Below, piece after piece: positions 1,447 through 51,262 of a DNA stretch of 64,000 nt. The position numbers and the translations under genes were made by a program. Source of the stretch: Candidatus Daviesbacteria bacterium (GTDB lineage: Bacteria; Patescibacteriota; Microgenomatia; Daviesbacterales; UBA10151); contig JACPKL010000008.1 in the NCBI GenBank assembly GCA_016187035.1, forward strand, positions 35,990 through 99,989, given 5' to 3'. The notes beneath the pieces are model-generated. The model saw only the letters and a program-made list of their open reading frames with translations, searched no databases and was not told where the DNA came from. Position 1 is the first letter of the stretch, and each line of letters starts with the position of its first letter.

Positions 1447-1497
1447 TGTCATCCCTGCGAAAGCAGGGATCCATACAAAATCAAGTACGGAATGACA
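1447..1497. repeat. TGTCAT...ATGACA palindromic (MITE-like) element, 51 nt
   Basis: Termini are tgtcatcc / ggaatgaca. Inner perfect stem is ccctgc-GAAA-gcaggg. Intergenic, upstream of mreB. Confidence 0.8.
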
Positions 1498-2531: not shown

Positions 2532-3782
2532 ATGACTATTGGTTTTGACGGGTCAAGGGCTTTTGGACAAAATAAGCAAAGCTCTTCCTGGAATGAGCAA
2601 AGCTCTTCCTGGAATGAGCAAAGCTCTTCCTGGAATGAGCAAAGCTCTTCCTGGAATAAAACAGGAACAGAAAATTATTCTTATCAGCTGTTAAAAGCAT
2701 TGGCAAAAATTGACAATAAGAATAGCTATATTGTTTATTTAAGACCTGATGTGGTTATTCCTGGTTTTTCTTCTGTCGTTCCGAACGTAGTTATGTTCGC
2801 TCGCAATGACCAGGAGGATTGGCCGGAAAATTTCCAATTTAGGGTTATTCCCTGGCCCAGGTTTTGGACCCAGGGAGGCCTAGCTTTGCAGACTTTTAAA
2901 GACAAGTTGGATGTGCTATTTATTCCTTCCCATACCTTGCCTTTAATCAGGAAAAGAGGGCTTAAGACTATGATTACAGTACATGATTTAGGATCAGAGT
3001 ATCTGCCATCAATGCACCAAATTAAGCAGCGGTTATATTTGTCTTTTATGCAAAAATACCAGCTTAAAACTGCTAGCAAGATAATTGCAGTATCAAAGGC
3101 TACCAAACTAGATCTAATTAACAAAATAGGTATCAAGTCAGATAAAATAACAGTTGTTTATGAAGGATATGATGAAAAAAGATTTAAGATTCAAGATTTA
3201 AGATTTAAGAATGATATAAAAGTTAATAGTTTGAGATACTTTTTGTTTGTAGGGACAGTACAACCAAGGAAGAATTTGGAAAGGGTAATAAGAGCTTTCT
3301 CAACTCACCTCGAAGGTGAAAAAATGCAGTTACACCTTCGAGGTGGATTGAAGCTGCTGATTGCTGGTTCCAAGGGTTGGTTATCTGATGAAATATATAA
3401 ACTCCCTAAAAAACTGGGAATAGAGGATAAAGTCAAGTTTTTAGGCTATGTGCCTGACGAAAAGCTGGCTTATCTTTATAAAGGAGCTATAGCTTTGGTT
3501 TTTCCCTCTCTTTTTGAAGGATTTGGTTTGCCTATTCTGGAAGCCCAAGCTTGTAGTTGCCCGGTGATTACCTCAAACCTCTCATCCATGCCTGAAGTGG
3601 CAGGTAAAGGAGCAATTTTAGTGAATCCGTATTCTGTAGATGATATAGTAAGGGGGATGGTACAAGTTCAAAGTTCAAAGTTCAAAGTTCAAAGTTTGAT
3701 AAAAGCAGGGCTTCAGAATGTTAAAAGATTTAGCTGGGAAAAGGCAGCGAGGGAAACATTGAAAGTGCTATCGTCATCCTGA
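2532..3782 (+). CDS. Glycosyltransferase family 4 (GT-B, GT1-type C-terminal domain)
   Basis: FPSLFEGFGLPILEAQACSCPVITSNLSSMPEVAG (E-x7-E region). N-terminus MTIGFDGSRAF is typical of GT4. Carries several in-frame repeat insertions. Confidence 0.85.
   Translation: MTIGFDGSRAFGQNKQSSSWNEQSSSWNEQSSSWNEQSSSWNKTGTENYSYQLLKALAKIDNKNSYIVYLRPDVVIPGFSSVVPNVVMFARNDQEDWPENFQFRVIPWPRFWTQGGLALQTFKDKLDVLFIPSHTLPLIRKRGLKTMITVHDLGSEYLPSMHQIKQRLYLSFMQKYQLKTASKIIAVSKATKLDLINKIGIKSDKITVVYEGYDEKRFKIQDLRFKNDIKVNSLRYFLFVGTVQPRKNLERVIRAFSTHLEGEKMQLHLRGGLKLLIAGSKGWLSDEIYKLPKKLGIEDKVKFLGYVPDEKLAYLYKGAIALVFPSLFEGFGLPILEAQACSCPVITSNLSSMPEVAGKGAILVNPYSVDDIVRGMVQVQSSKFKVQSLIKAGLQNVKRFSWEKAARETLKVLSSS
2576..2659 (+). 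repeat. Tandem repeat, 21 bp x 4 (gcaaagctcttcctggaatga)
   Basis: Three identical units and a fourth with one mismatch. Encodes (QSSSWNE)x4 near the GT4 N-terminus. Confidence 0.95.
3179..3213 (+). repeat. Heptanucleotide-period array (aagattt family), in frame in GT4
   Basis: aagattt aagattc aagattt aagattt aagaatg. Translated KRFKIQDLRFKND. Confidence 0.85.
3306..3345 (+). repeat. Perfect hairpin element (13-bp stem, 14-nt loop), in frame in GT4
   Basis: cacctcgaaggtg (3306-3318) and caccttcgaggtg (3333-3345) are exact reverse complements. Translated HLEGEKMQLHLRG. A second copy lies at 59238-59307. Confidence 0.9.
3663..3696 (+). repeat. Heptanucleotide-period array (caaagtt), in frame in GT4
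   Basis: caagtt followed by caaagtt x4. Translated VQVQSSKFKVQS. Confidence 0.9.
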
Positions 3783-3796
3783 TACGAATTTCGCAG

Positions 3797-3877
3797 TGTC
3801 ATTGCGAGGAAGGAGTCTTCGACTGACGAAGCAATCTTCCGAGCTGGGAAGATTCCTCGGATGCACTCGGAATGACA
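3797..3877. repeat. TGTCAT...ATGACA palindromic (MITE-like) element, 81 nt
   Basis: tgtcattgcgagg...ctcggaatgaca. Inner stem aatcttcc-gagctg-ggaagatt. Fills the GT4/GT26 intergenic spacer. Confidence 0.8.
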
Positions 3878-5613: not shown

Positions 5614-6054
5614 TTATTGTAATTCTACAGTAGCACCTGCTGCTGTTAATTTGGTTTTTGCTTCTTCAGCTGTTTGTTTGTTAACATTTTCTAAAACCGG
5701 TTTTGGAGCTGCTTCTACCAAATCTTTAGCTTCTTTAAGTCCTAAAGTAGGTACTAATTCCCTGACAGCTTTAATTACGGCTATTTTATTAGCTCCTGCT
5801 TGAGAAAGGACCACATTAAAGGTTGTTTTCTCCTCTTGCGGCTCACCTGCTGCTTGCCCTGAGTTTGTCGAAGGGGCTACTGCCACAGGCGCTTGAGCTG
5901 ATACACCAAACTTATCTTCCAGAGTATGGACTAAATCTGCCAGTTCTAGAACTGATAATTTCTCAATAGTAGCAATTATTCCTTCTAAGTTTTTACTAAC
6001 TGGTTTCTTTTCAGAAGACTTAGATTTCTGATCTTGTGTATTATCCATGTTCAT
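5614..6054 (-). CDS. rplL: 50S ribosomal protein L7/L12 with about 20-aa K/S-rich N-terminal extension
   Basis: [26 protein letters not shown]...[31 protein letters not shown]...ATVELQ. Confidence 0.9.
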
Positions 6055-6055
6055 T

Positions 6056-6147
6056 TGTCATTCTGAACGAAGTGAAGAATCTCTAGACTTGTTCTAAATA
6101 CATCTGAAATGAATTCAGAGATCCTTCGCTAATCGCTCAGGATGACG
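6056..6147. repeat. TGTCAT...ATGACG palindromic (MITE-like) element, 92 nt
   Basis: Left arm tgtcattctgaacgaagtgaagaatctct. Right arm agagatccttcgctaatcgctcaggatgacg. Fills the rplJ-rplL spacer and overlaps the last codons and stop of rplJ. Confidence 0.85.
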
Positions 6148-6752: not shown

Positions 6753-7832
6753 TTAAGCTGAATTATTATTATAACCAATTAACCACCAGAAAGCAAGCAG
6801 GTTAACCACACTTAAAGGATTAAACAGCATAGCAGTCATCAGCCCTAACAAAGCAGTTGTTTCCAGCAGTTTTTTATGCTGGATAAAGCGCTGAAAAGCT
6901 AAATATATCAGTAAAGATATTGAAACAACCCCTACCAGTCCTCCCTGGATCCAAAAATCCAGTAAAAAATTATGGGCACTGTCTACTATCTGATATTGAA
7001 CATTATTATTTAGAGAAACTGCCTCTTTGTGGATTATCTTTTGAATACTGCCAAATCCATGCCCAATAAAAGGAGATTTAAGACCTGCCATCAAAGCTGT
7101 CTGCCAAATTTCAGCACGGTTTTCAAACAGTCTTGGGGTGGCTGCAACAGGTAAGGTCAGACTAAGCATCATTAGTAAAATGCATATTATTGTTGCTTTA
7201 AGAGTTGAGGTTTTGACTCTGATGAGAATAATAAATACTACCTCAATTATTAGACCAATTAATCCAGCCCTGGAGCCTGATAATAAGATCAAAGTGCAGG
7301 TGGCAACCAGTGTCAGAAAACGTATTAATCTTCTGCAATGAGACCAGGTAAAAGGGAAGATAAACAAGGCAGTGGCAGCCAGGGCGTTTGGTTCACCCAG
7401 TGTGCCAAAAGCCCGTCCCTCAAAACTTCCTAAAATTACTGTTCCCATAAAAAGAAAAAGTAAAGACAATTGATACAGAAATTTAGGTATTTGATCTAGT
7501 TGGATATTTTTGGTCATTAGGGAGAAAAGTAATAAAGACATAAACAAAAATTGCCCCTGCAATCTAAAAGCATTACCAAAAAAAGCTCCAGCGCTCTTAA
7601 AAAGCAAGCTGGTATCCAAACTTAAAATAAACAAAATGCCTACAAAAATAATTTGAGGATTGATGAATTGTTTAAGCTGAGGTTTTTTAAAATTAATTAT
7701 TTTTAGGAAAAGCAGGGTATTAATAACTGCCTCTGTTAGAATCACCTTAGGAGTTTCAAAAGGGGAAATGCCGATGGGAATAACTACCAGGGGTAAAAAG
7801 AATAATAAAAAGACAACAAGGTATGCAGCCAC
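6753..7832 (-). CDS. O-antigen ligase / Wzy-like polytopic membrane protein
   Basis: About 10 TM segments. LGEPNALAATALFIFPF and LLSGSRAGLIGLII are typical of the O-antigen ligase family. Confidence 0.65.
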   Translation of the reverse strand: MAAYLVVFLLFFLPLVVIPIGISPFETPKVILTEAVINTLLFLKIINFKKPQLKQFINPQIIFVGILFILSLDTSLLFKSAGAFFGNAFRLQGQFLFMSLLLFSLMTKNIQLDQIPKFLYQLSLLFLFMGTVILGSFEGRAFGTLGEPNALAATALFIFPFTWSHCRRLIRFLTLVATCTLILLSGSRAGLIGLIIEVVFIILIRVKTSTLKATIICILLMMLSLTLPVAATPRLFENRAEIWQTALMAGLKSPFIGHGFGSIQKIIHKEAVSLNNNVQYQIVDSAHNFLLDFWIQGGLVGVVSISLLIYLAFQRFIQHKKLLETTALLGLMTAMLFNPLSVVNLLAFWWLIGYNNNSA

Positions 7833-13002: not shown

Positions 13003-13899
13003 ATCCAGCTTTATTGATGGGCCCATGGTGGGTGAAAGGGAGACTTTTTTAATCCTGGATTTGCCTATGGTTTGGAGAAGAGTTTTAATATTAGCTGATA
13101 ACTCCTCAGTGGGTTGATTAAGTTTACCTAAACCAAGATGGATAACAGGAGCTTTGGCTTCTGTTTTATATTCTGAGCGAAGCGAAGAATTCAAGCTCTG
13201 CTTATATTCTGTTTTACCAGCCTGGAAAGACTCTACTGCCTTTTTTAAATCAGTCACAATAGTACCGCTCTTAGGATTTGGCATGAGGCCCTTAGGTCCT
13301 AAAATCCGGGCAACTTTAGCCAGTTTAGGCATACCAGCAGGTGTTGTCACAATTAAATCAAAATCTATTTTGCCTTTACTGATATTTTCAATAGTCTCAT
13401 CGTCACCCTCATAAGCTAAGATCCTTAATTTCTTGCCTGAGGCATAGGGGAGGGAAACCAGTCCCCGTAGCCCGGTTTGGATAGTTAAAATATGGGCTTC
13501 CAAAGTGCCTGTAAAGGCTGAGAAAGAATGTTTTTTTACCAGATCTACAGCCTCATTCAGAGGGTAGGTTTTACTTCTATCTAAGTCTTTAGTAGCTTGC
13601 TGGTATTTTTTAGATCTGGGCTTGGATTTAGCAGGTCTCCTGTTATCAGGTTTCTGTTTTCGGTTTTCGGATGTAAGTTTATCAGTTCTCTGTTTGTCTG
13701 TTTCTGAAACTGATAAACTGGTAACAGATTTACCTTTATCTGACAACTGAGAACTGAGAACCGATGACTGATCTTCTCCTTCCAGCTCTGCTTTGAGTTT
13801 TTCCACCAGCTCATCTGTCCTGCCTAGTTTTTTGGCAGGTTTTTTTGGTTCTTTTTGTTGGATGGAATCATCCATTATTTTTGTTTTAGTTTTACCCAT
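12988..13899 (-). CDS. rplA: 50S ribosomal protein L1 with about 95-aa N-terminal extension and an internal 12-aa insertion
   Basis: Core motifs [33 protein letters not shown]...[11 protein letters not shown] overlaps the rplK stop (ATGGGTAA), as in coupled rplKA. Confidence 0.9.
13166..13211. repeat. 36-nt element insertion bounded by 10-bp direct repeat TTATATTCTG, in frame in rplA
   Basis: TTATATTCTG at 13166-13175 and 13202-13211. Between them lies agcgaagcgaagaattcaagctctgc. Duplicates the EYK codons of L1. Confidence 0.85.
13746..13773. repeat. Heptanucleotide-period array (actgaga), in frame in rplA N-terminal extension
   Basis: actgaga actgaga accgatg actgatc. The neighbouring sequence 13649-13670 has ttttcgg units. 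Confidence 0.8.
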
Positions 13900-21090: not shown

Positions 21091-21300
21091 ATGCCTTTAA
21101 TCTGGGATTATGATATAAATGAGCTGAAGAAAACTAAATCAGGCAGGCTCCTGATTTTGGAAAGATTAATTAATTATGGCCCCACCAATAAAAGGGAAAA
21201 AATCAGTTTATCTGAGGTCAAGAAGAATTGGGAAAGACTCAAAGGTAACTTATTCCCATTGCCAAAAAGACTAATGGAACTTCTTATATGGGGAAAGTGA
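21091..21300 (+). CDS. Small protein, putative partner/antitoxin of the downstream AbiEii-like toxin
   Basis: 69 aa. Overlaps the next gene by 13 nt. No recognisable motif. Confidence 0.45.
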   Translation: MPLIWDYDINELKKTKSGRLLILERLINYGPTNKREKISLSEVKKNWERLKGNLFPLPKRLMELLIWGK

Positions 21301-21956
21301 ATCAAAGAATAAATCTTACTCCAAAACAGCAGATCATATTTAATGAGTTCAAAAAAAGCGACTTTTTAAAACAAAACTTCTATTTTACAGGTGGAACCGC
21401 TCTTTCTGCTGTTTATTTAAACCATAGATTATCTGAAGACTTGGATTTTTTCTCTCAAGAAAAGTTTGATACTTTACCAATAGAAAATTTGATAACAGCT
21501 TGGGGGCAGAAATACCAGTTTAAAATTAATTTAAGGGAGGAGGAAGTAGTCAAAGTTTTTCTTCTGCAATTTGAAGATAAAGAGCAACTTAAAGTTGATT
21601 TTGGCTATTATCCTTATAAAAGATTAAGGCCAGGACAGGCCATTGACTGCGTGGAGATTGACAGTTTATTTGATATCGCTGTTAACAAGCTGCAGACCAT
21701 ACATCAAAGAGAGAATGTTAAGGATTTTGTTGATCTTTACTTTTTACTTAAGGATTTCACAGTGTGGGATCTAATAGAAGGTGTGAGGATAAAGTTTCGC
21801 ATGGAAGTAGACCCTTATACTATCGCAGCAGCTTATCTAAAAGCTGAAAGGTTTGATAGTTTGCCAAAAATGCTGGTATCACTGGATTTATCAGAACTTC
21901 AAGCGTTTTATAAAGATTTAGCTAAAAAGCTGGGCAAAAGTGTGGTAAAGCCTTAA
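21288..21956 (+). CDS. Nucleotidyltransferase AbiEii/AbiGii-family toxin (type IV TA / abortive infection)
   Basis: FTGGTALSAVYLNHRLSEDLDFF N-terminal signature. Size 222 aa. Confidence 0.7.
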   Translation: MGKVNQRINLTPKQQIIFNEFKKSDFLKQNFYFTGGTALSAVYLNHRLSEDLDFFSQEKFDTLPIENLITAWGQKYQFKINLREEEVVKVFLLQFEDKEQLKVDFGYYPYKRLRPGQAIDCVEIDSLFDIAVNKLQTIHQRENVKDFVDLYFLLKDFTVWDLIEGVRIKFRMEVDPYTIAAAYLKAERFDSLPKMLVSLDLSELQAFYKDLAKKLGKSVVKP

Positions 21957-29882: not shown

Positions 29883-30074
29883 GTTTTTTATTAAGTAGGA
29901 CAGTTGGAGCTTTGTGAGCGTATTCTAAGATATTTTTCTTAAAGCTTCAAGAGGGTAAATTGAAATGATTATAGGATGTGGTAAAATGCAGAATAACTAT
30001 GATACAAGTTTCGCTGGAATGACAGGAAAGTAAGAATGATGCTGGAGAAAACTGAACTCATGCTGCTATAAAAG

Positions 30075-37291: not shown

Positions 37292-37504
37292 ATGTTAATA
37301 TGTTCAAGATGCGGTAAGGGAAAAAATACCCTCTCATTTTCCCGTCATAAAAAGGGTTCCTCTGGAGCTGGAGGAGTGTGGGCTTTGCGCGCCCCAATCC
37401 ACAAAAGAGTCCAAAAACCCAACCTCCATATTTATAATGGAAAAAAATACTGCACTAAATGTTTAAGAATAGTTAAAAAAGACGTGTCCGCAATAACTGC
37501 TTAA
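37292..37504 (+). CDS. rpmB: 50S ribosomal protein L28
   Basis: CSRCGKG...SFSRHKKGSSGAGGVWALRAPIHKRVQKPNLH pattern of bL28. Confidence 0.65.
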   Translation: MLICSRCGKGKNTLSFSRHKKGSSGAGGVWALRAPIHKRVQKPNLHIYNGKKYCTKCLRIVKKDVSAITA

Positions 37505-38405
37505 GAGGAAAATCAGGGTAGCCGTTTAAGAAGTCTTTGAAGGATATTGGTTTTTTCCCCTCCATTTGCAATAAATGTTCATCCTTCCTGTCATTCTGAG
37601 CGATTAGCGAAGAATCTTCCATGGATCGGGAAGATTCCTCACTCTGTTTTGGATAACGTATGGGTGGCAAAAATTTAATAATTTTGTTATTCCATTTTGT
37701 CCATACCCCTGGCCAGGGATAATAAGCGCGGATCTCTCTGTCTAATTTTTCAGGTTGGGGAGGATTATTAATATTAAAATAACCATCTTCTTTAACAAAG
37801 TGTTTAGTGTAAGTAGCCTTGGAATGATCTTGGGGGGTAGGATTAATTGATCCTTCCAAGTATTGTTTTATTACCTTTAAAATTAGTTGTCCTCCTAGTT
37901 CATTTAGCTTAGTCAATAAAGTATCTCTAGTTTCTTTGGGAGTCAGTATATATTCCTGTTGGGCTAGTATATCTCCGCTATCTACCTCATCAGTTATTTG
38001 AATGATAGTAACTCCTGAAATCTTGTCTCCATTAAGAATAGCAGTAGGAGCAGGGGAAGGACCTCTATATTTGGGTAAAAGTGAATGATGGATATTTAAT
38101 GGAGCATATTTTGGTAAGGTTAGCAAGTCTTTAGACAGGATTAATCCATAATCTTCCACTACCAAAAAATCACTCTTCAGCTTGGCAATTTTATTTATTA
38201 CTTCCTTGTCTAATTTACTTGTTTCCAAAGTTGGAATATTTAATTCACTGGCTAATTTTTTAACAGGACTATCAGGAATTGTGATAACTAACGATACAGG
38301 AAAGATTGAATAGACAATCTTTAATCCAATAATTGAGTACTTTGTATTCCCAAAAAAAACTAGTTTAAGTTTTGAGTTTTGATTTGAAGTTTTAACATTT
38401 GACAT
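37473..38405 (-). CDS. fmt: Methionyl-tRNA formyltransferase
   Basis: VFFGNT..., NIHHSLLPKYRGPSPAPTAIL, C-terminal LQMEGKKPISFKDFLNGY. Position is downstream of def. Confidence 0.85.
   Translation of the reverse strand: MSNVKTSNQNSKLKLVFFGNTKYSIIGLKIVYSIFPVSLVITIPDSPVKKLASELNIPTLETSKLDKEVINKIAKLKSDFLVVEDYGLILSKDLLTLPKYAPLNIHHSLLPKYRGPSPAPTAILNGDKISGVTIIQITDEVDSGDILAQQEYILTPKETRDTLLTKLNELGGQLILKVIKQYLEGSINPTPQDHSKATYTKHFVKEDGYFNINNPPQPEKLDREIRAYYPWPGVWTKWNNKIIKFLPPIRYPKQSEESSRSMEDSSLIAQNDRKDEHLLQMEGKKPISFKDFLNGYPDFPLKQLLRTRLF
37589..37646. repeat. TGTCAT-type palindromic element, in frame in the fmt C-terminal domain
   Basis: tgtcattctgagcgattagcgaagaatcttcc-atggatc-gggaagattcctcactctg. The arm nearly matches the reverse complement of the right arm of the 6056-6147 element. 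Translated (minus) as about QSEESSRSMEDSSLIAQNDRK. Confidence 0.8.
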
Positions 38406-43267: not shown

Positions 43268-43516
43268 ATGTTACAAAAAATTATTCAAGTAGGTAATTCA
43301 TATGCAATAACTATTCCTAAAAGTATCATTGACGCGTATGGTGTGGCAAAGGAAAAATTTGTCAATCTTTATGAGGAGCCTAAAAATAAAAGAGTAGTTA
43401 TTAGTTTTTTAACCGAAGACTCAACAGATGAAATTATAGACCCTGAAGTTTATATGGTAGCAAAAAAACTCCTAAAAAGATATTTGCCTGCCTTTAAAGA
43501 GCTTGCAAGAAAATAA
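43268..43516 (+). CDS. AbrB/MazE/SpoVT-fold antitoxin (Phd-like partner of Doc)
   Basis: IIQVGNSYAITIPKSIIDAYGV swapped-hairpin motif. Lies directly upstream of doc. Confidence 0.7.
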   Translation: MLQKIIQVGNSYAITIPKSIIDAYGVAKEKFVNLYEEPKNKRVVISFLTEDSTDEIIDPEVYMVAKKLLKRYLPAFKELARK

Positions 43517-43529
43517 TTCGAGATGATTA

Positions 43530-43922
43530 ATGAAGTACTTATCTGTTAAAGATGTATTGCTTTTGCATAGTATGGCAGTTGATGAGAGCGGCGGTTCTCA
43601 CGGATTACGTGATTTAGGGCTTTTGGAATCAGCTGTCGCCAGACCTCAATCCTCATTTGGTGGAGAGGATTTGCATCCAGACATGTTTTTGAAAGTAGGA
43701 GCCTTAATTCATGGACTCTTGAGAAATCATCCGTTTGTGGATGGGAATAAACGTACCTCAATGTTTTCAGCCATGACATTTCTAGAATTAAATGGTTATC
43801 TCTTCGATGCAAGGCAAAAAGAAGTAGTTAATTTTGCTTTAAAAGTGGAAAATGAGAAATTATCTGTAGAGGAAATTGCAAAATGGTTAAAAGAGCACAC
43901 CAAAATTAGAAAATTAAAATAA
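43530..43922 (+). CDS. doc: Doc (death-on-curing) Fic-fold toxin
   Basis: LLESAVARPQ...HPFVDGNKRTS (Fic/Doc motif). Confidence 0.85.
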   Translation: MKYLSVKDVLLLHSMAVDESGGSHGLRDLGLLESAVARPQSSFGGEDLHPDMFLKVGALIHGLLRNHPFVDGNKRTSMFSAMTFLELNGYLFDARQKEVVNFALKVENEKLSVEEIAKWLKEHTKIRKLK

Positions 43923-45013: not shown

Positions 45014-45604
45014 TTAGCTGTTTTTGTATTTGTAAGCCAAACGCTTTTTAAGAAGATTTTCTGAATAACCACCTTCTGTTTCATGTTTTCTCTCTAAAGC
45101 ATTCATCTGTTTATCCAAAAGATAACCTTCTCTGATTAAAACGTCAATCAAATAATTGACTATTCCCTCTATTCCTTCTTTTCCACCTAATCCCTCTTTA
45201 TTAATCTTGAGGATAGCCTTGACTGAAGTTAAAGAAGAGGGATAAGAAGGATTAGGAGAATTAGAGGGGTAATTTTCTATAGCTAGGCGAAGTCTAAATA
45301 AACGAGGATCTCCTTTGTCCCAAAAGGGGAGATTTTCTAATTTTAAAATATCTTCAAAATCCTCCAAAGCCTCCATACCAGATGATTTAGCTACATCATA
45401 AAGCTTAAGTTTGGTAGATAAACTTCTTTCAGAGCAACCTTCCACAATATTTTGCTTATTTGACCTTAGAGCTTGTTTAATCTGGTCTCTTTGACGGTGG
45501 TCCTCGTATTTATGATAGTAGAGAGGGACAAATTCCCAACCTATTAAAAAGGCAATTTCAGATAATTTATAAGAAAGAAGCTGTTTGTAACCTGGGACAG
45601 CCAT
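45014..45604 (-). CDS. Four-helix-bundle protein (23S rRNA-IVS-protein-like family)
   Basis: YKLSEIAFLIGWEF...QALRSNKQNIVEGCSERSLSTKLKLYDVAKSSGMEALEDFEDIL. Confidence 0.6.
   Translation of the reverse strand: MAVPGYKQLLSYKLSEIAFLIGWEFVPLYYHKYEDHRQRDQIKQALRSNKQNIVEGCSERSLSTKLKLYDVAKSSGMEALEDFEDILKLENLPFWDKGDPRLFRLRLAIENYPSNSPNPSYPSSLTSVKAILKINKEGLGGKEGIEGIVNYLIDVLIREGYLLDKQMNALERKHETEGGYSENLLKKRLAYKYKNS
45165..45269. repeat. 105-nt imperfect hairpin (ggattagaagg family), in frame (35 codons)
   Basis: The left arm ccctctattccttcttttccacctaatccctcttt faces the right arm aaagaagagggataagaaggattaggagaattagagggg. Confidence 0.8.
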
Positions 45605-50144: not shown

Positions 50145-50185
50145 TAATTTCAATTAGGTAGCTGTGCTACAATTTGACTATTGTA

Positions 50186-51262
50186 ATGAATAATGTAGTT
50201 TATCTGTTAGCGCTACATTCTATTGATGGCCTTGGGCCAATAAGACTTAAGGCAATTATTGATTATTTTAAAGATCCAAAACTAGCTTGGGAAGCGAAGG
50301 CAGAAGAAGTCAGAAACTTAGGATTACCACAAAATGTAATAAATCTTTTTCTGGAAACCAGAAAGAGATTGGATCCAGAAAGTTATGCACAGTCAATTAA
50401 AAATTCTGGTATTAACTGGGTAACAATTTTTGATGATGATTATTCAAGTCTTTTAAGGCAAATATATGACCCGCCAATAGTTTTATATTACAAGGGAAAA
50501 ATAAAAAACTGGAATAACCCGGCTATAGCTATAGTAGGAAGCAGGAAAATGACTGGATATGGCAGGGTAGTGACTGAAAGATTTACCAAAGAACTGGTTG
50601 CTTCTGGGTTAACTATTGTTTCTGGGTTGGCTAGAGGAGTAGATGCTAAGGCTCACTGGACAGCAGTTAAAGAAAAAGGTCAAACTCTGGCTGTTTTAGG
50701 AGGTGGTTTAAATCAAATATATCCTCCGGAAAACAGACAACTGGCAGAAGAAATTGAACAGCAGGGGGCTGTGATTTCTGAGTTTCCTCCTGACTACCCA
50801 TCACTTCCGGGTAATTTTCCCCAAAGAAATAGAATTATTGCTGGATTATCAAAAGCAGTATTAGTAACTGAAGCAGCTTCAGATTCTGGTTCTTTAATTA
50901 CTGCAAGGTTAGCTGTAGAAGGAGGTAGGGAGGTTTTTGCTGTACCCGGTCCTATCACCTCCTCTTTGTCTAAAGGACCAATTGATTTAATTAAAGCAGG
51001 AGCAAAGCCTATTTTTGAGCCTCAGGAGATTTTAGAGGAATTAGGAATTCAAAATAAGGTAAAAGCCACCTTTCATAAGGAACTACAACTTTCTGAGGAT
51101 GAAAGAAAAGTGTTAGAGTATTTAGGAGAAGAAAGCCATCATATTGATGAGATAGGCAGGATGTTAAGTTTTCCTGCTGCAAAGATTTCTGCAATTTTAT
51201 TAAAAATGGAGATTTCTGGCTTGGTGCAAGGTTTGGGTAGTGGTAATTATTGTAAATCTTGA
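50186..51262 (+). CDS. dprA: DNA-processing protein DprA
   Basis: GSRKMTGYG, GLARGVDAKAH, GSLITA. ATG 50186 is preferred over the track's TTG 50174. Confidence 0.85.
   Translation: MNNVVYLLALHSIDGLGPIRLKAIIDYFKDPKLAWEAKAEEVRNLGLPQNVINLFLETRKRLDPESYAQSIKNSGINWVTIFDDDYSSLLRQIYDPPIVLYYKGKIKNWNNPAIAIVGSRKMTGYGRVVTERFTKELVASGLTIVSGLARGVDAKAHWTAVKEKGQTLAVLGGGLNQIYPPENRQLAEEIEQQGAVISEFPPDYPSLPGNFPQRNRIIAGLSKAVLVTEAASDSGSLITARLAVEGGREVFAVPGPITSSLSKGPIDLIKAGAKPIFEPQEILEELGIQNKVKATFHKELQLSEDERKVLEYLGEESHHIDEIGRMLSFPAAKISAILLKMEISGLVQGLGSGNYCKS

Follow-up and report, generated by a model that had tools for sequence, protein, structure and literature searches.

Repetitive extragenic palindromic (REP) sequences with an unpaired CGTC tag, often TGTC and with CCTC as a variant, were defined by Di Nocera, De Gregorio and Rocco (2013; PMC3733652), who reported stems of 8–9 bp nearly always beginning with complementary A and T, loops of 4–5 nucleotides (nt), a tail with the consensus CCA, and a predominance of head-to-head homo- or heterodimers with the tags outside, lying mainly in intergenic regions between same-direction or convergent genes, near the upstream stop codon, with some in-frame intragenic copies. 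The superfamily includes the dRS3 (NTS) of Neisseria and the Rickettsia palindromic elements RPE-4 and RPE-6 (PMC3733652), and while no transposase was known for it in 2013 (PMC3733652), a nuclease partner was identified in 2025 (PMC11893778). Chenal et al. (2025; PMC11893778) extended dRS3 to the 28-nt NTS, CGTCATTCCCGCGMAVGCGGGAATCYRG, which the GIY-YIG protein SsnA, of 94 amino acids (aa), binds and cuts only as single-stranded DNA (ssDNA) and on one strand only, a few nt 5' of the tag; the C 3' of the palindrome is critical for binding and the three bases (GTC) 5' of it for cleavage. The ssn genes are typically flanked by the motif (NTS-ssnA-NTS), and a pattern for Ssn-related motifs (SRM) was built from 29 genomes of 4 phyla (PMC11893778). 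Here, we analysed a 64,000-nt stretch of a Candidatus Daviesbacteria contig (JACPKL010000008.1, positions 35,990 to 99,989), hereafter the window, which contains four short palindromic elements (A to D) that a preliminary description of the sequence had presented as a family of miniature inverted-repeat transposable element (MITE)-like repeats. In our judgement, with a probability of about 0.8, these elements, from a member of the Candidate Phyla Radiation (CPR; Microgenomates), are non-autonomous and consist of REP units tagged with CGTC or TGTC and paired head to head; the Ssn-related motifs (NTS/SRM) are the same repeats under another name.

The family is already described and widespread, and is not a new class (PMC3733652, PMC11893778). 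The window elements share with the CGTC-tagged REPs the tag, the stem starting A-T/T-A, the head-to-head dimers, the location in same-direction spacers near the upstream stop, the in-frame copies, the lack of a linked transposase and, in part, the loops (GAAA and CTTGA) and the tail (CCA in element A). Even the peptide is shared, since the translation of the left unit of A is VIPAKAGI, the peptide of a R. conorii CGTC-1 unit (supplement, PMC3733652). As for the NTS/SRM-Ssn system, the window family does not vary at the nucleotides that are critical for SsnA, namely GTC ahead of the stem and C behind it. The differences from the CGTC-tagged REPs lie in the host, a CPR bacterium, the 2013 survey having listed five phyla (PMC3733652), and in the commonest unit, which has a tandem G.A pair and a GAA loop in place of a fully paired stem, and for the most part the tail CTC rather than CCA. 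What is new here is the CPR host, a unit variant missed by the SRM pattern, an ssn gene nested in a single inserted dimer, a recurrent insertion site in fmt and a microhomology-flanked copy in rplA.

Tagged hairpin units in the window

All four elements consist of two inverted units with their tags outward and a short spacer between them, which gives the palindromes of the form TGTCAT...ATGACA (Table 1). Each unit, of about 25 nt, has an unpaired (T/C)GTC tag, a stem of 8–9 positions starting A-T, T-A, a loop of 3–5 nt and then a C. The tag is TGTC in A, in both units of B, in the left unit of C and in D, and CGTC in the right unit of C and in the truncated head at 3772; the loops in the window include GAAA, CTTGA and GATTA.

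Table 1. Units, dimers and unit remnants found in the window
Feature	Position	Strand	Location	Structure	Remark
Element A	1447-1497		PEGA–mreB spacer		head-to-head heterodimer
A, left unit	1447-1473			TGTC-ATCCCTGC-GAAA-GCAGGGAT-CCA	
A, right unit	~1469-1497	minus		TGTC-ATTCCGTA-CTTGA-TTTTGTAT	decayed CTTGA-loop unit
Element B	3797-3877		GT4 glycosyltransferase–wecG (WecG-type transferase) spacer		head-to-head dimer
B, left unit	3797-3836			TGTC-ATTGC...GCAAT-C	long-loop variant
B, central stem				AATCTTCC-N6-GGAAGATT	N6-8 in the element family
B, right unit	3851-3877	minus		TGTC-ATTCCGAG-TGCAT-CCGAGGAAT-C	
Element C	6056-6147		fills the rplJ–rplL spacer		head-to-head dimer
C, left unit	6056-6083	plus		TGTC-ATTCTGAAC-GAA-GTGAAGAAT-C	
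C, right unit	6118-6147	minus		CGTC-ATCCTGAGC-GATTA-GCGAAGGAT-C	
Element D	37589-37658		in frame inside fmt (37473..38405, minus strand)		head-to-head dimer
D, intact unit	37589-37616	plus		TGTC-ATTCTGAGC-GATTA-GCGAAGAAT-C	
D, second unit	37633-37658	minus		CGTTATCCAAAACAGAGTGAGGAATC	decayed
Truncated unit head	3772-3782	plus	end of GT4 glycosyltransferase gene (2532..3782)	CGTCATCCTGA	
rplA hairpin core	13170-13190	minus	rplA	ATTCTGAGCGAAGCGAAGAAT	perfect 21-nt core, without GTC tag and 3' C
Solitary decayed unit	30000-30024	minus		TGTC-ATTCCAGC-GAAA-CTTGTAT-C	direct reading

The preliminary description had placed elements at 1447-1497, 3797-3877, 6056-6147 and from 37589, and all four are present as it gave them, well above chance, although some of their features have to be redrawn. 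Element C ends in GGATGACG (a CGTC tag on the other strand) and not in GGAATGACA. Element D is embedded in fmt as described, and in frame, but it ends at about 37658 instead of 37646, its second arm being decayed. The modules proposed to be shared among the copies are indeed shared, but all of them are variants of one hairpin unit, together with a central stem formed by the paired inner ends of the units. The rplA core and the truncated head at 3772-3782 had been missed.

Chance palindromes in AT-rich spacers, for which the low G+C content of the window speaks and nothing more, can be dismissed. There are four occurrences of GGAATGACA in the 64-kb window where 0.43 are expected, and three of TGTCATTCTGARCGA, with up to 2 mismatches, against 0.09; the two-ended terminus pattern was absent from all shuffles, so that these counts lie far over the shuffled ones, and identical 25-mers are found in about 16 phyla among the matches listed from the genome scan presented below. 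In single-strand folding, A (z = -5.3) and C (z = -5.0) stood well apart from their shuffles, and B and D were moderately better than theirs. A covariance model, which the preliminary description had proposed, was built from 38 distinct units and used with filters off; in the window it recovered six units, one of them, the rplA copy, new. The scores were 44.8 and 34.9 bits for C, 35.9 for D, 29.7 for B, 25.6 for the rplA copy (E 3e-4) and 16.2 for A, all remaining hits having E>2; the unit at 30000-30024 fell below the threshold. In the alignment of these 38 units, which had been chosen with a hairpin filter, 7/9 stem pairs vary on both sides (covariation score 0.395 vs 0.163 in shuffles), while G2, T3, C4 and C26 are invariant, as are the A-T/T-A first pairs (38/38). 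Among 245 collected units, 190 carry TGTC and 38 CGTC. In the commonest type, a stem of 5 bp is followed by a tandem G.A pair (positions 6-7, G.A/A.G mismatches), 2 bp and a 3-nt GAA loop, and then by a tail that is mostly CTC and whose first base, C, is invariant.

The sequence at 30001-30030 had been taken for a possible internally deleted copy of B. The similarity of the flanks is real (GATACRARTTTCGC and GGAATGACAGRAAG), but the sequence is more simply read as a decayed single unit. Alone, a 12/14 match of this kind is expected about 0.4 times in 64 kb, and it becomes meaningful because it adjoins one of only four GGAATGACA sites. The left flank of B has GCGAAAYTYGTATC in common with this unit, and our provisional reading is that the two are remnants of a single older subtype of the unit and that B was inserted beside one of them. 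Inside the glycosyltransferase gene, at 2789-2810 (minus), GTCATTGCGAGCGAA matches a unit head, with no recognisable hairpin, and is either a relic or a chance match.

Filled and empty sites

Twelve metagenome contigs that share the order PEGA-mreB-GT-wecG-GPI-(rplL<-rplJ), where GT is the glycosyltransferase gene, allowed the window spacers to be compared with those of relatives. The PEGA–mreB spacer measures 118 nt with A in the window, and 61-67 nt with no unit in five relatives; the GT–wecG spacer has 105 nt with B, and 2-48 nt with no dimer in eight relatives, one of which (L125) retains the truncated head at the stop codon and has an empty site that reads ...ACGAACAG/AAAG... (...CAG/AAAG...). 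The rplJ–rplL spacer, bordered by genes in which Pfam identifies L10 and L12, has 82 nt filled by C in the window, no unit in L127 and L135, and a different dimer in L129-131. The spacer elements of the window are therefore insertions relative to its syntenic relatives, and their mobility follows from two orthologous spacers being empty in every relative examined and the third being mixed.

The inserted elements separate genes that abut or overlap in the relatives, and they also supply coding ends: CGTCATCCTGA at 3772-3782 provides the glycosyltransferase gene with its final codons and its TGA stop (...TCG TCA TCC TGA), and the same sequence within C provides the rplJ stop at 6137-6139 (...GCG TCA TCC TGA). 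In addition, two Logan contigs with an identical mreB (L002 and L003, position 1) begin exactly at the TGTCAT/TCAT of A, and a contig from a 99%-identical strain (L201 ~1490-1577) departs from the window sequence inside D into unrelated DNA, which is either a repeat-induced graph jump or a real rearrangement; both breaks are as expected for a repeat that is present elsewhere in the genome. In annotation, the elements account for unusual C-termini (SSS*, ASS*), for additional loops in Fmt and ribosomal protein L1, and for assembly breaks in CPR metagenomes.

In five relatives (L125, L126, L127, L133 and L134), mreB starts about 9 nt past a conserved extended -10 box, TGnTAAAAT, which is preceded by TTGACC, and to judge from this arrangement their mreB mRNA looks leaderless. 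At 1390-1507 of the window, A and GAGGAAGTTT are inserted between the -10 box and the mreB ATG, and this insert supplies mreB with a hairpin leader of 60 nt that includes a Shine-Dalgarno-like run. A purine run (GRAAGG) was also considered as part of the element and was rejected, the run being already present in the empty sites of L125 and P0002.

Elements A, B and C lie between same-direction genes, 7-10 nt upstream of the next start codon, B and C also overlapping the stop on their upstream side, and this placement, the stable RNA hairpins predicted for them and the known effects of E. coli REPs on mRNA would suit cis-acting RNA structures selected at operons, be they intercistronic stabilisers, processing sites or translational regulators. 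Such structures would not be expected, however, to be missing from the orthologous positions of relatives, to lie in coding sequence (A, B and C are in spacers, but D and the rplA copy are inside genes) or to stand beside unrelated genes in about 16 phyla among the matches listed; moreover, SsnA does not bind the RNA form (PMC11893778), and Rfam at its gathering threshold returned 3 tRNAs only in the window, with no family for the repeat. We regard this explanation as improbable and, in agreement with the preliminary description, favour a dispersed repeat over a structured RNA tied to particular operons. Any effects on RNA are likely consequences of insertion, and not the reason for the existence of the elements.

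The elements are also inserted inside essential genes. In Fmt, D and its flanks replace a 2-residue turn by 30 residues, PIRYPKQSEESSRSMEDSSLIAQNDRKDEH, in frame. The alignment with the E. coli Fmt structure was uninformative across the insert, and CPR homologues were used instead. The site is empty in 81 of the 94 Microgenomates homologues, in which it is a two-residue turn (KF[LY]P-xx-x[LIVM]QMEGK; TTACCA/GGAGGT/TTACTG in the nearest empty relative), and filled in the other 13 with single units or dimers of different variants and in two reading frames. On a neighbour-joining tree, the filled alleles appear in scattered places, each beside empty sisters; the site has been filled independently many times, at least 13. 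Nor is fmt the sole intragenic landing place in the group, as orthologues of the glycosyltransferase gene (2532..3782) have head-to-head dimers inside the coding region in L129-131 (e.g., L129 1066-1145), L148 (288-351) and L132 (~1066).

The rplA insert adds 36 nt in frame, and hence a 12-residue peptide. On either side of it (13166-13175 and 13203-13212) stands one copy of a 10-nt direct repeat, TTATATTCTG, the last 6 nt of which are the start of the hairpin. Among the L1 homologues matched, 106/113 read GKTEYKTExKAPV with no insert, and the 12-residue insert occurs in the window genome alone; a few other L1 homologues have inserts of 6-8 aa (EHSSKQVY and similar) at the same point. Both Fmt and L1 gain surface loops in this way, as do essential genes of Rickettsia, where in-frame insertion of palindromic elements (RPE-1 and others) adds a surface peptide; RPE-1 differs in being about 150 bp long and of unrelated sequence, whereas RPE-4 and RPE-6 belong to the same CGTC superfamily.

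An 8-mer, ATGAACAT, follows the ATGACA end of D (37575-37588, past GGAAGG) and also that of C (6047-6054, past one A), where it belongs to the rplL start ATGAACATG; further copies of this 8-mer were sought and none was found. The coincidence hints that the fmt insert, when it was copied, brought with it flanking DNA from a donor locus situated upstream of a gene start.

These filled and empty pairs also bear on whether the elements are MITEs of a DDE-type insertion sequence, with TG...CA termini acting as terminal inverted repeats (TIRs) for a transposase provided in trans. The elements do start with TG and end with CA, they are short and without an open reading frame (ORF), and no transposase was found in the window in Pfam scans of 60 ORFs, on which we agree with the preliminary description. 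No target-site duplication was seen by eye at any filled/empty pair, however, single units occur alone, the supposed TIR is a self-folding hairpin with a covarying interior, and the full-length relative (see below) carries only a nuclease of 95-110 aa, which leaves this alternative scarcely credible. The term MITE-like remains apt insofar as the elements resemble bacterial MITEs such as the Correia elements in being short, ORF-less, palindromic and dispersed, and apparently in descending from a longer unit with a gene of its own; it is misleading in that they lack target-site duplications and a DDE transposase, their ends are complete tagged hairpins, i.e., autonomous units and not simple TIRs, and their partner is a GIY-YIG protein.

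The Ssn nuclease as candidate partner

Our search returned 2134 Ssn homologues, including proteins named Candidatus Daviesbacteria. In two CPR contigs (L143 and L138), a GIY-YIG ORF of 97-98 aa lies between two inverted units whose tags face outward; L143 reads TGTC-ATTCTGGAGC-GAA-GCGATAGAAT-C, followed by 7 nt and the ssn ORF, whose final codons run into the second unit, ...GATCCTATCGGGCTAAAGCCCTCCAGGATGACA. A GIY-YIG ORF flanked by the canonical 25-mer was found in a Gracilibacteria contig (L011), and in two Daviesbacteria assemblies (L207 and L208) the ssn gene is again bracketed by units, with a long-loop unit similar to the left unit of B at L208 15917. The proteins between units have 95-110 aa, and relative to the gonococcal protein of 94 aa, that of L143 is 48% identical (tblastn E 2e-22) and the Daviesbacteria protein P0188 39% identical (BLASTP E 6e-27). 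The gene for the gonococcal protein is itself surrounded by at least 14 copies of the unit head CGTCATTCC, 7 of which are full NTS matches; this ssnA locus was found in NZ_CP119140.1 and NZ_CP119142.1, which are 2.17-Mb N. gonorrhoeae chromosomes filed as plasmids in a plasmid collection. The junction that bears ssn measures 367-373 nt in L143 and L138 vs 2-13 nt in L137, L141, L145, L146 and L147, and the ssn-bearing unit is thus itself an insertion. These small single-domain GIY-YIG genes with repeats on both sides correspond to the published NTS-ssnA-NTS layout. The CPR arrangement differs from the published system in that one head-to-head dimer encloses ssn, in the manner of a minimal insertion sequence.

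The nature of the gene between the units also speaks against classical REPINs, i.e., REP doublets mobilised by a REP-associated Y1/HUH tyrosine transposase (RAYT). The logic is shared with the GTAG REPs and REPINs of E. coli and Pseudomonas: imperfect palindromes whose 5' tag is unpaired, inverted doublets that fold into long hairpins and appear to be the replicating unit, an extragenic location in operons, most copies without a linked gene, and one ssDNA-specific enzyme that acts in trans and whose own gene has the repeats on both sides. Nevertheless, the tag here is (C/T)GTC and not GTAG, no Y1 transposase gene flanked by CGTC units was seen by Di Nocera et al. (PMC3733652), no Y1_Tnp is present among the 60 window ORFs, and in five CPR loci the gene between inverted units encodes a GIY-YIG nuclease in place of the HUH/Y1 transposase. 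We therefore consider RAYT-mobilised REPINs highly improbable.

Several points weigh against our identification of the elements with Ssn-related motifs and are set out here together. In N. meningitidis, changing the stem sequence while keeping the hairpin abolished SsnA activity (PMC11893778), and Ssn has been documented as a nuclease only, not as a mobiliser of repeats. The published SRM pattern, HGTCWYN(0-2)YYVSBRHN(0-5)WNVSBRGN(0-2)RNCYNB, had 0 matches in the window and in the CPR ssn loci. Phmmer against the six-frame translation revealed no Ssn homologue in the window, in keeping with the Pfam scans of the 60 ORFs, which found no transposase, integrase or GIY-YIG gene there, and the ssn partner was seen only in other Daviesbacteria/CPR contigs. 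Some of the window units are decayed (the right unit of A, the second unit of D and the unit at 30000-30024) and the rplA copy has no tag, so they may no longer be substrates. Finally, the use of a hairpin filter to choose the units for the covariation analysis makes the percentage paired circular.

With regard to the SRM pattern, the regular expression does match the Neisseria NTS (7 copies in the gonococcal locus L210 and 1 in L206), and we take it as a search pattern, not a functional definition. The window units thus differ from the published system in falling outside its pattern, as well as in the absence of the nuclease gene from the window. Since the commonest variant found here escapes this pattern, censuses that rely on it probably give numbers that are too low.

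In the mechanism that we propose, an Ssn encoded elsewhere in the genome would recognise the units in trans when the DNA is single-stranded, during replication or DNA uptake, and the short dimers would be gene-less derivatives of the ssn-bearing unit. Spread would begin with cleavage and continue with repair or template switching at short stretches of homology, and would not be of the cut-and-paste kind. This reading draws on the lack of target-site duplications, on the rplA copy, with pre-existing bases that complete it and a 10-nt repeat on either side, on the fmt insert, which carries about 14-20 nt of flanking DNA beyond the units, and on tandem duplications of a truncated head (the first 8-12 nt of the unit) at many copies in other phyla. 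A bolder extension, which we offer tentatively and consider rather unlikely as a whole, is that ssn between two outward-tagged units forms a minimal autonomous mobile element whose sole protein is a GIY-YIG nuclease and whose MITE-like derivatives are the gene-less dimers; that it would spread without a transposase, by ssDNA cleavage and microhomology-templated repair or capture; and that it may be currently active in CPR, with preferred landing sites, remodelling essential genes and operon junctions. Preferred landing sites are suggested by the Gly-Gly turn of Fmt and by positions just 5' of GGAGG-like runs. The spacers with and without dimers, the fmt site, the rplA insert with its 10-nt repeat and the junction with and without the ssn unit provide filled and empty material for tests of the mechanism.

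A few other genes of the window were noted. DprA (50174-51262) shows that the processing of DNA during uptake is encoded, and this matters should Ssn act on ssDNA that enters the cell. Toxin-antitoxin-type genes are present at 43268-43922 and 21288-21956, comprising a MazE-like antitoxin with a Fic/DOC protein, and an AbiEii nucleotidyltransferase toxin. The idea that such repeats flank genes for four-helix-bundle proteins of 23S rRNA intervening sequences was not borne out at these loci. A 196-aa ORF between pyrD and pyrE (45014-45604, minus) has a weak, sub-threshold match to the 23S rRNA intervening-sequence protein family (E 3.5e-5, 24 bits); there are no units around it, and relatives L202 and L204 lack such a gene at this position.

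Distribution across bacteria

For the genome scan we used one genome per species and the pattern GTCATYCTGAGCGAN{1,3}GCGAAGRATC, which gave at least 120 loci. Among the matches listed, the commonest unit, GTCATYCTGAGCGAAGCGAAGRATC, recurs with hardly any change in about 16 phyla; among the hosts are Acidobacteriota, Nitrospirota, Chloroflexota, Bacteroidota, Bacillota and Gemmatimonadota, as well as Verrucomicrobiota, Planctomycetota, Omnitrophota, Patescibacteria, Bdellovibrionota, Fibrobacterota and others. About half of these matches are convergent doublets, 10-90 nt apart, and the neighbours of the units are unrelated housekeeping genes. When ORFs that encode 70 aa or more and lie no further than 800 nt from any of 178 units (120 loci listed) were clustered, no family recurred, from which it follows that a partner gene is not linked to ordinary copies. 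A CPR genome, together with these phyla, is hereby placed within a CGTC-REP/Ssn-motif system that was known till now mainly from Proteobacteria.

Short tandem duplications of 19-24 nt precede many units in unrelated phyla, each consisting of 8-12 nt of unit head plus flank, e.g., (GAGCACTTACTGTCATCCT)x2. They were seen in L022 (~390-443), L006 (~7290-7346), L028, L032, L036, L075 and L011 (6114-6171), as well as at 3772-3802 of the window, and they could have been left behind by cleavage and repair, or by slippage, immediately 5' of the tag.

A literature search by sequence string yielded nothing relevant. In E-value mode, Rfam gave generic long-hairpin and miRNA matches and a sub-threshold AaHKsRNA41, which were rejected as family assignments. 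Canonical dimers (L093 3071-3242 and L043 749-834) score 41 bits against RF02901 (Aggregatibacter sRNA 41), for which the gathering score is 97, and the Aggregatibacter sRNA 41 may contain such a repeat. Finally, in Acidobacteriota and others (L007, L010, L043, L093, L106 and L079), dimers are nested in an outer inverted repeat (CAGGCTGCGGAAAAA...TTTTTCCGCAGCCTG, or GGGACTGTTGAAAAAGTC...).

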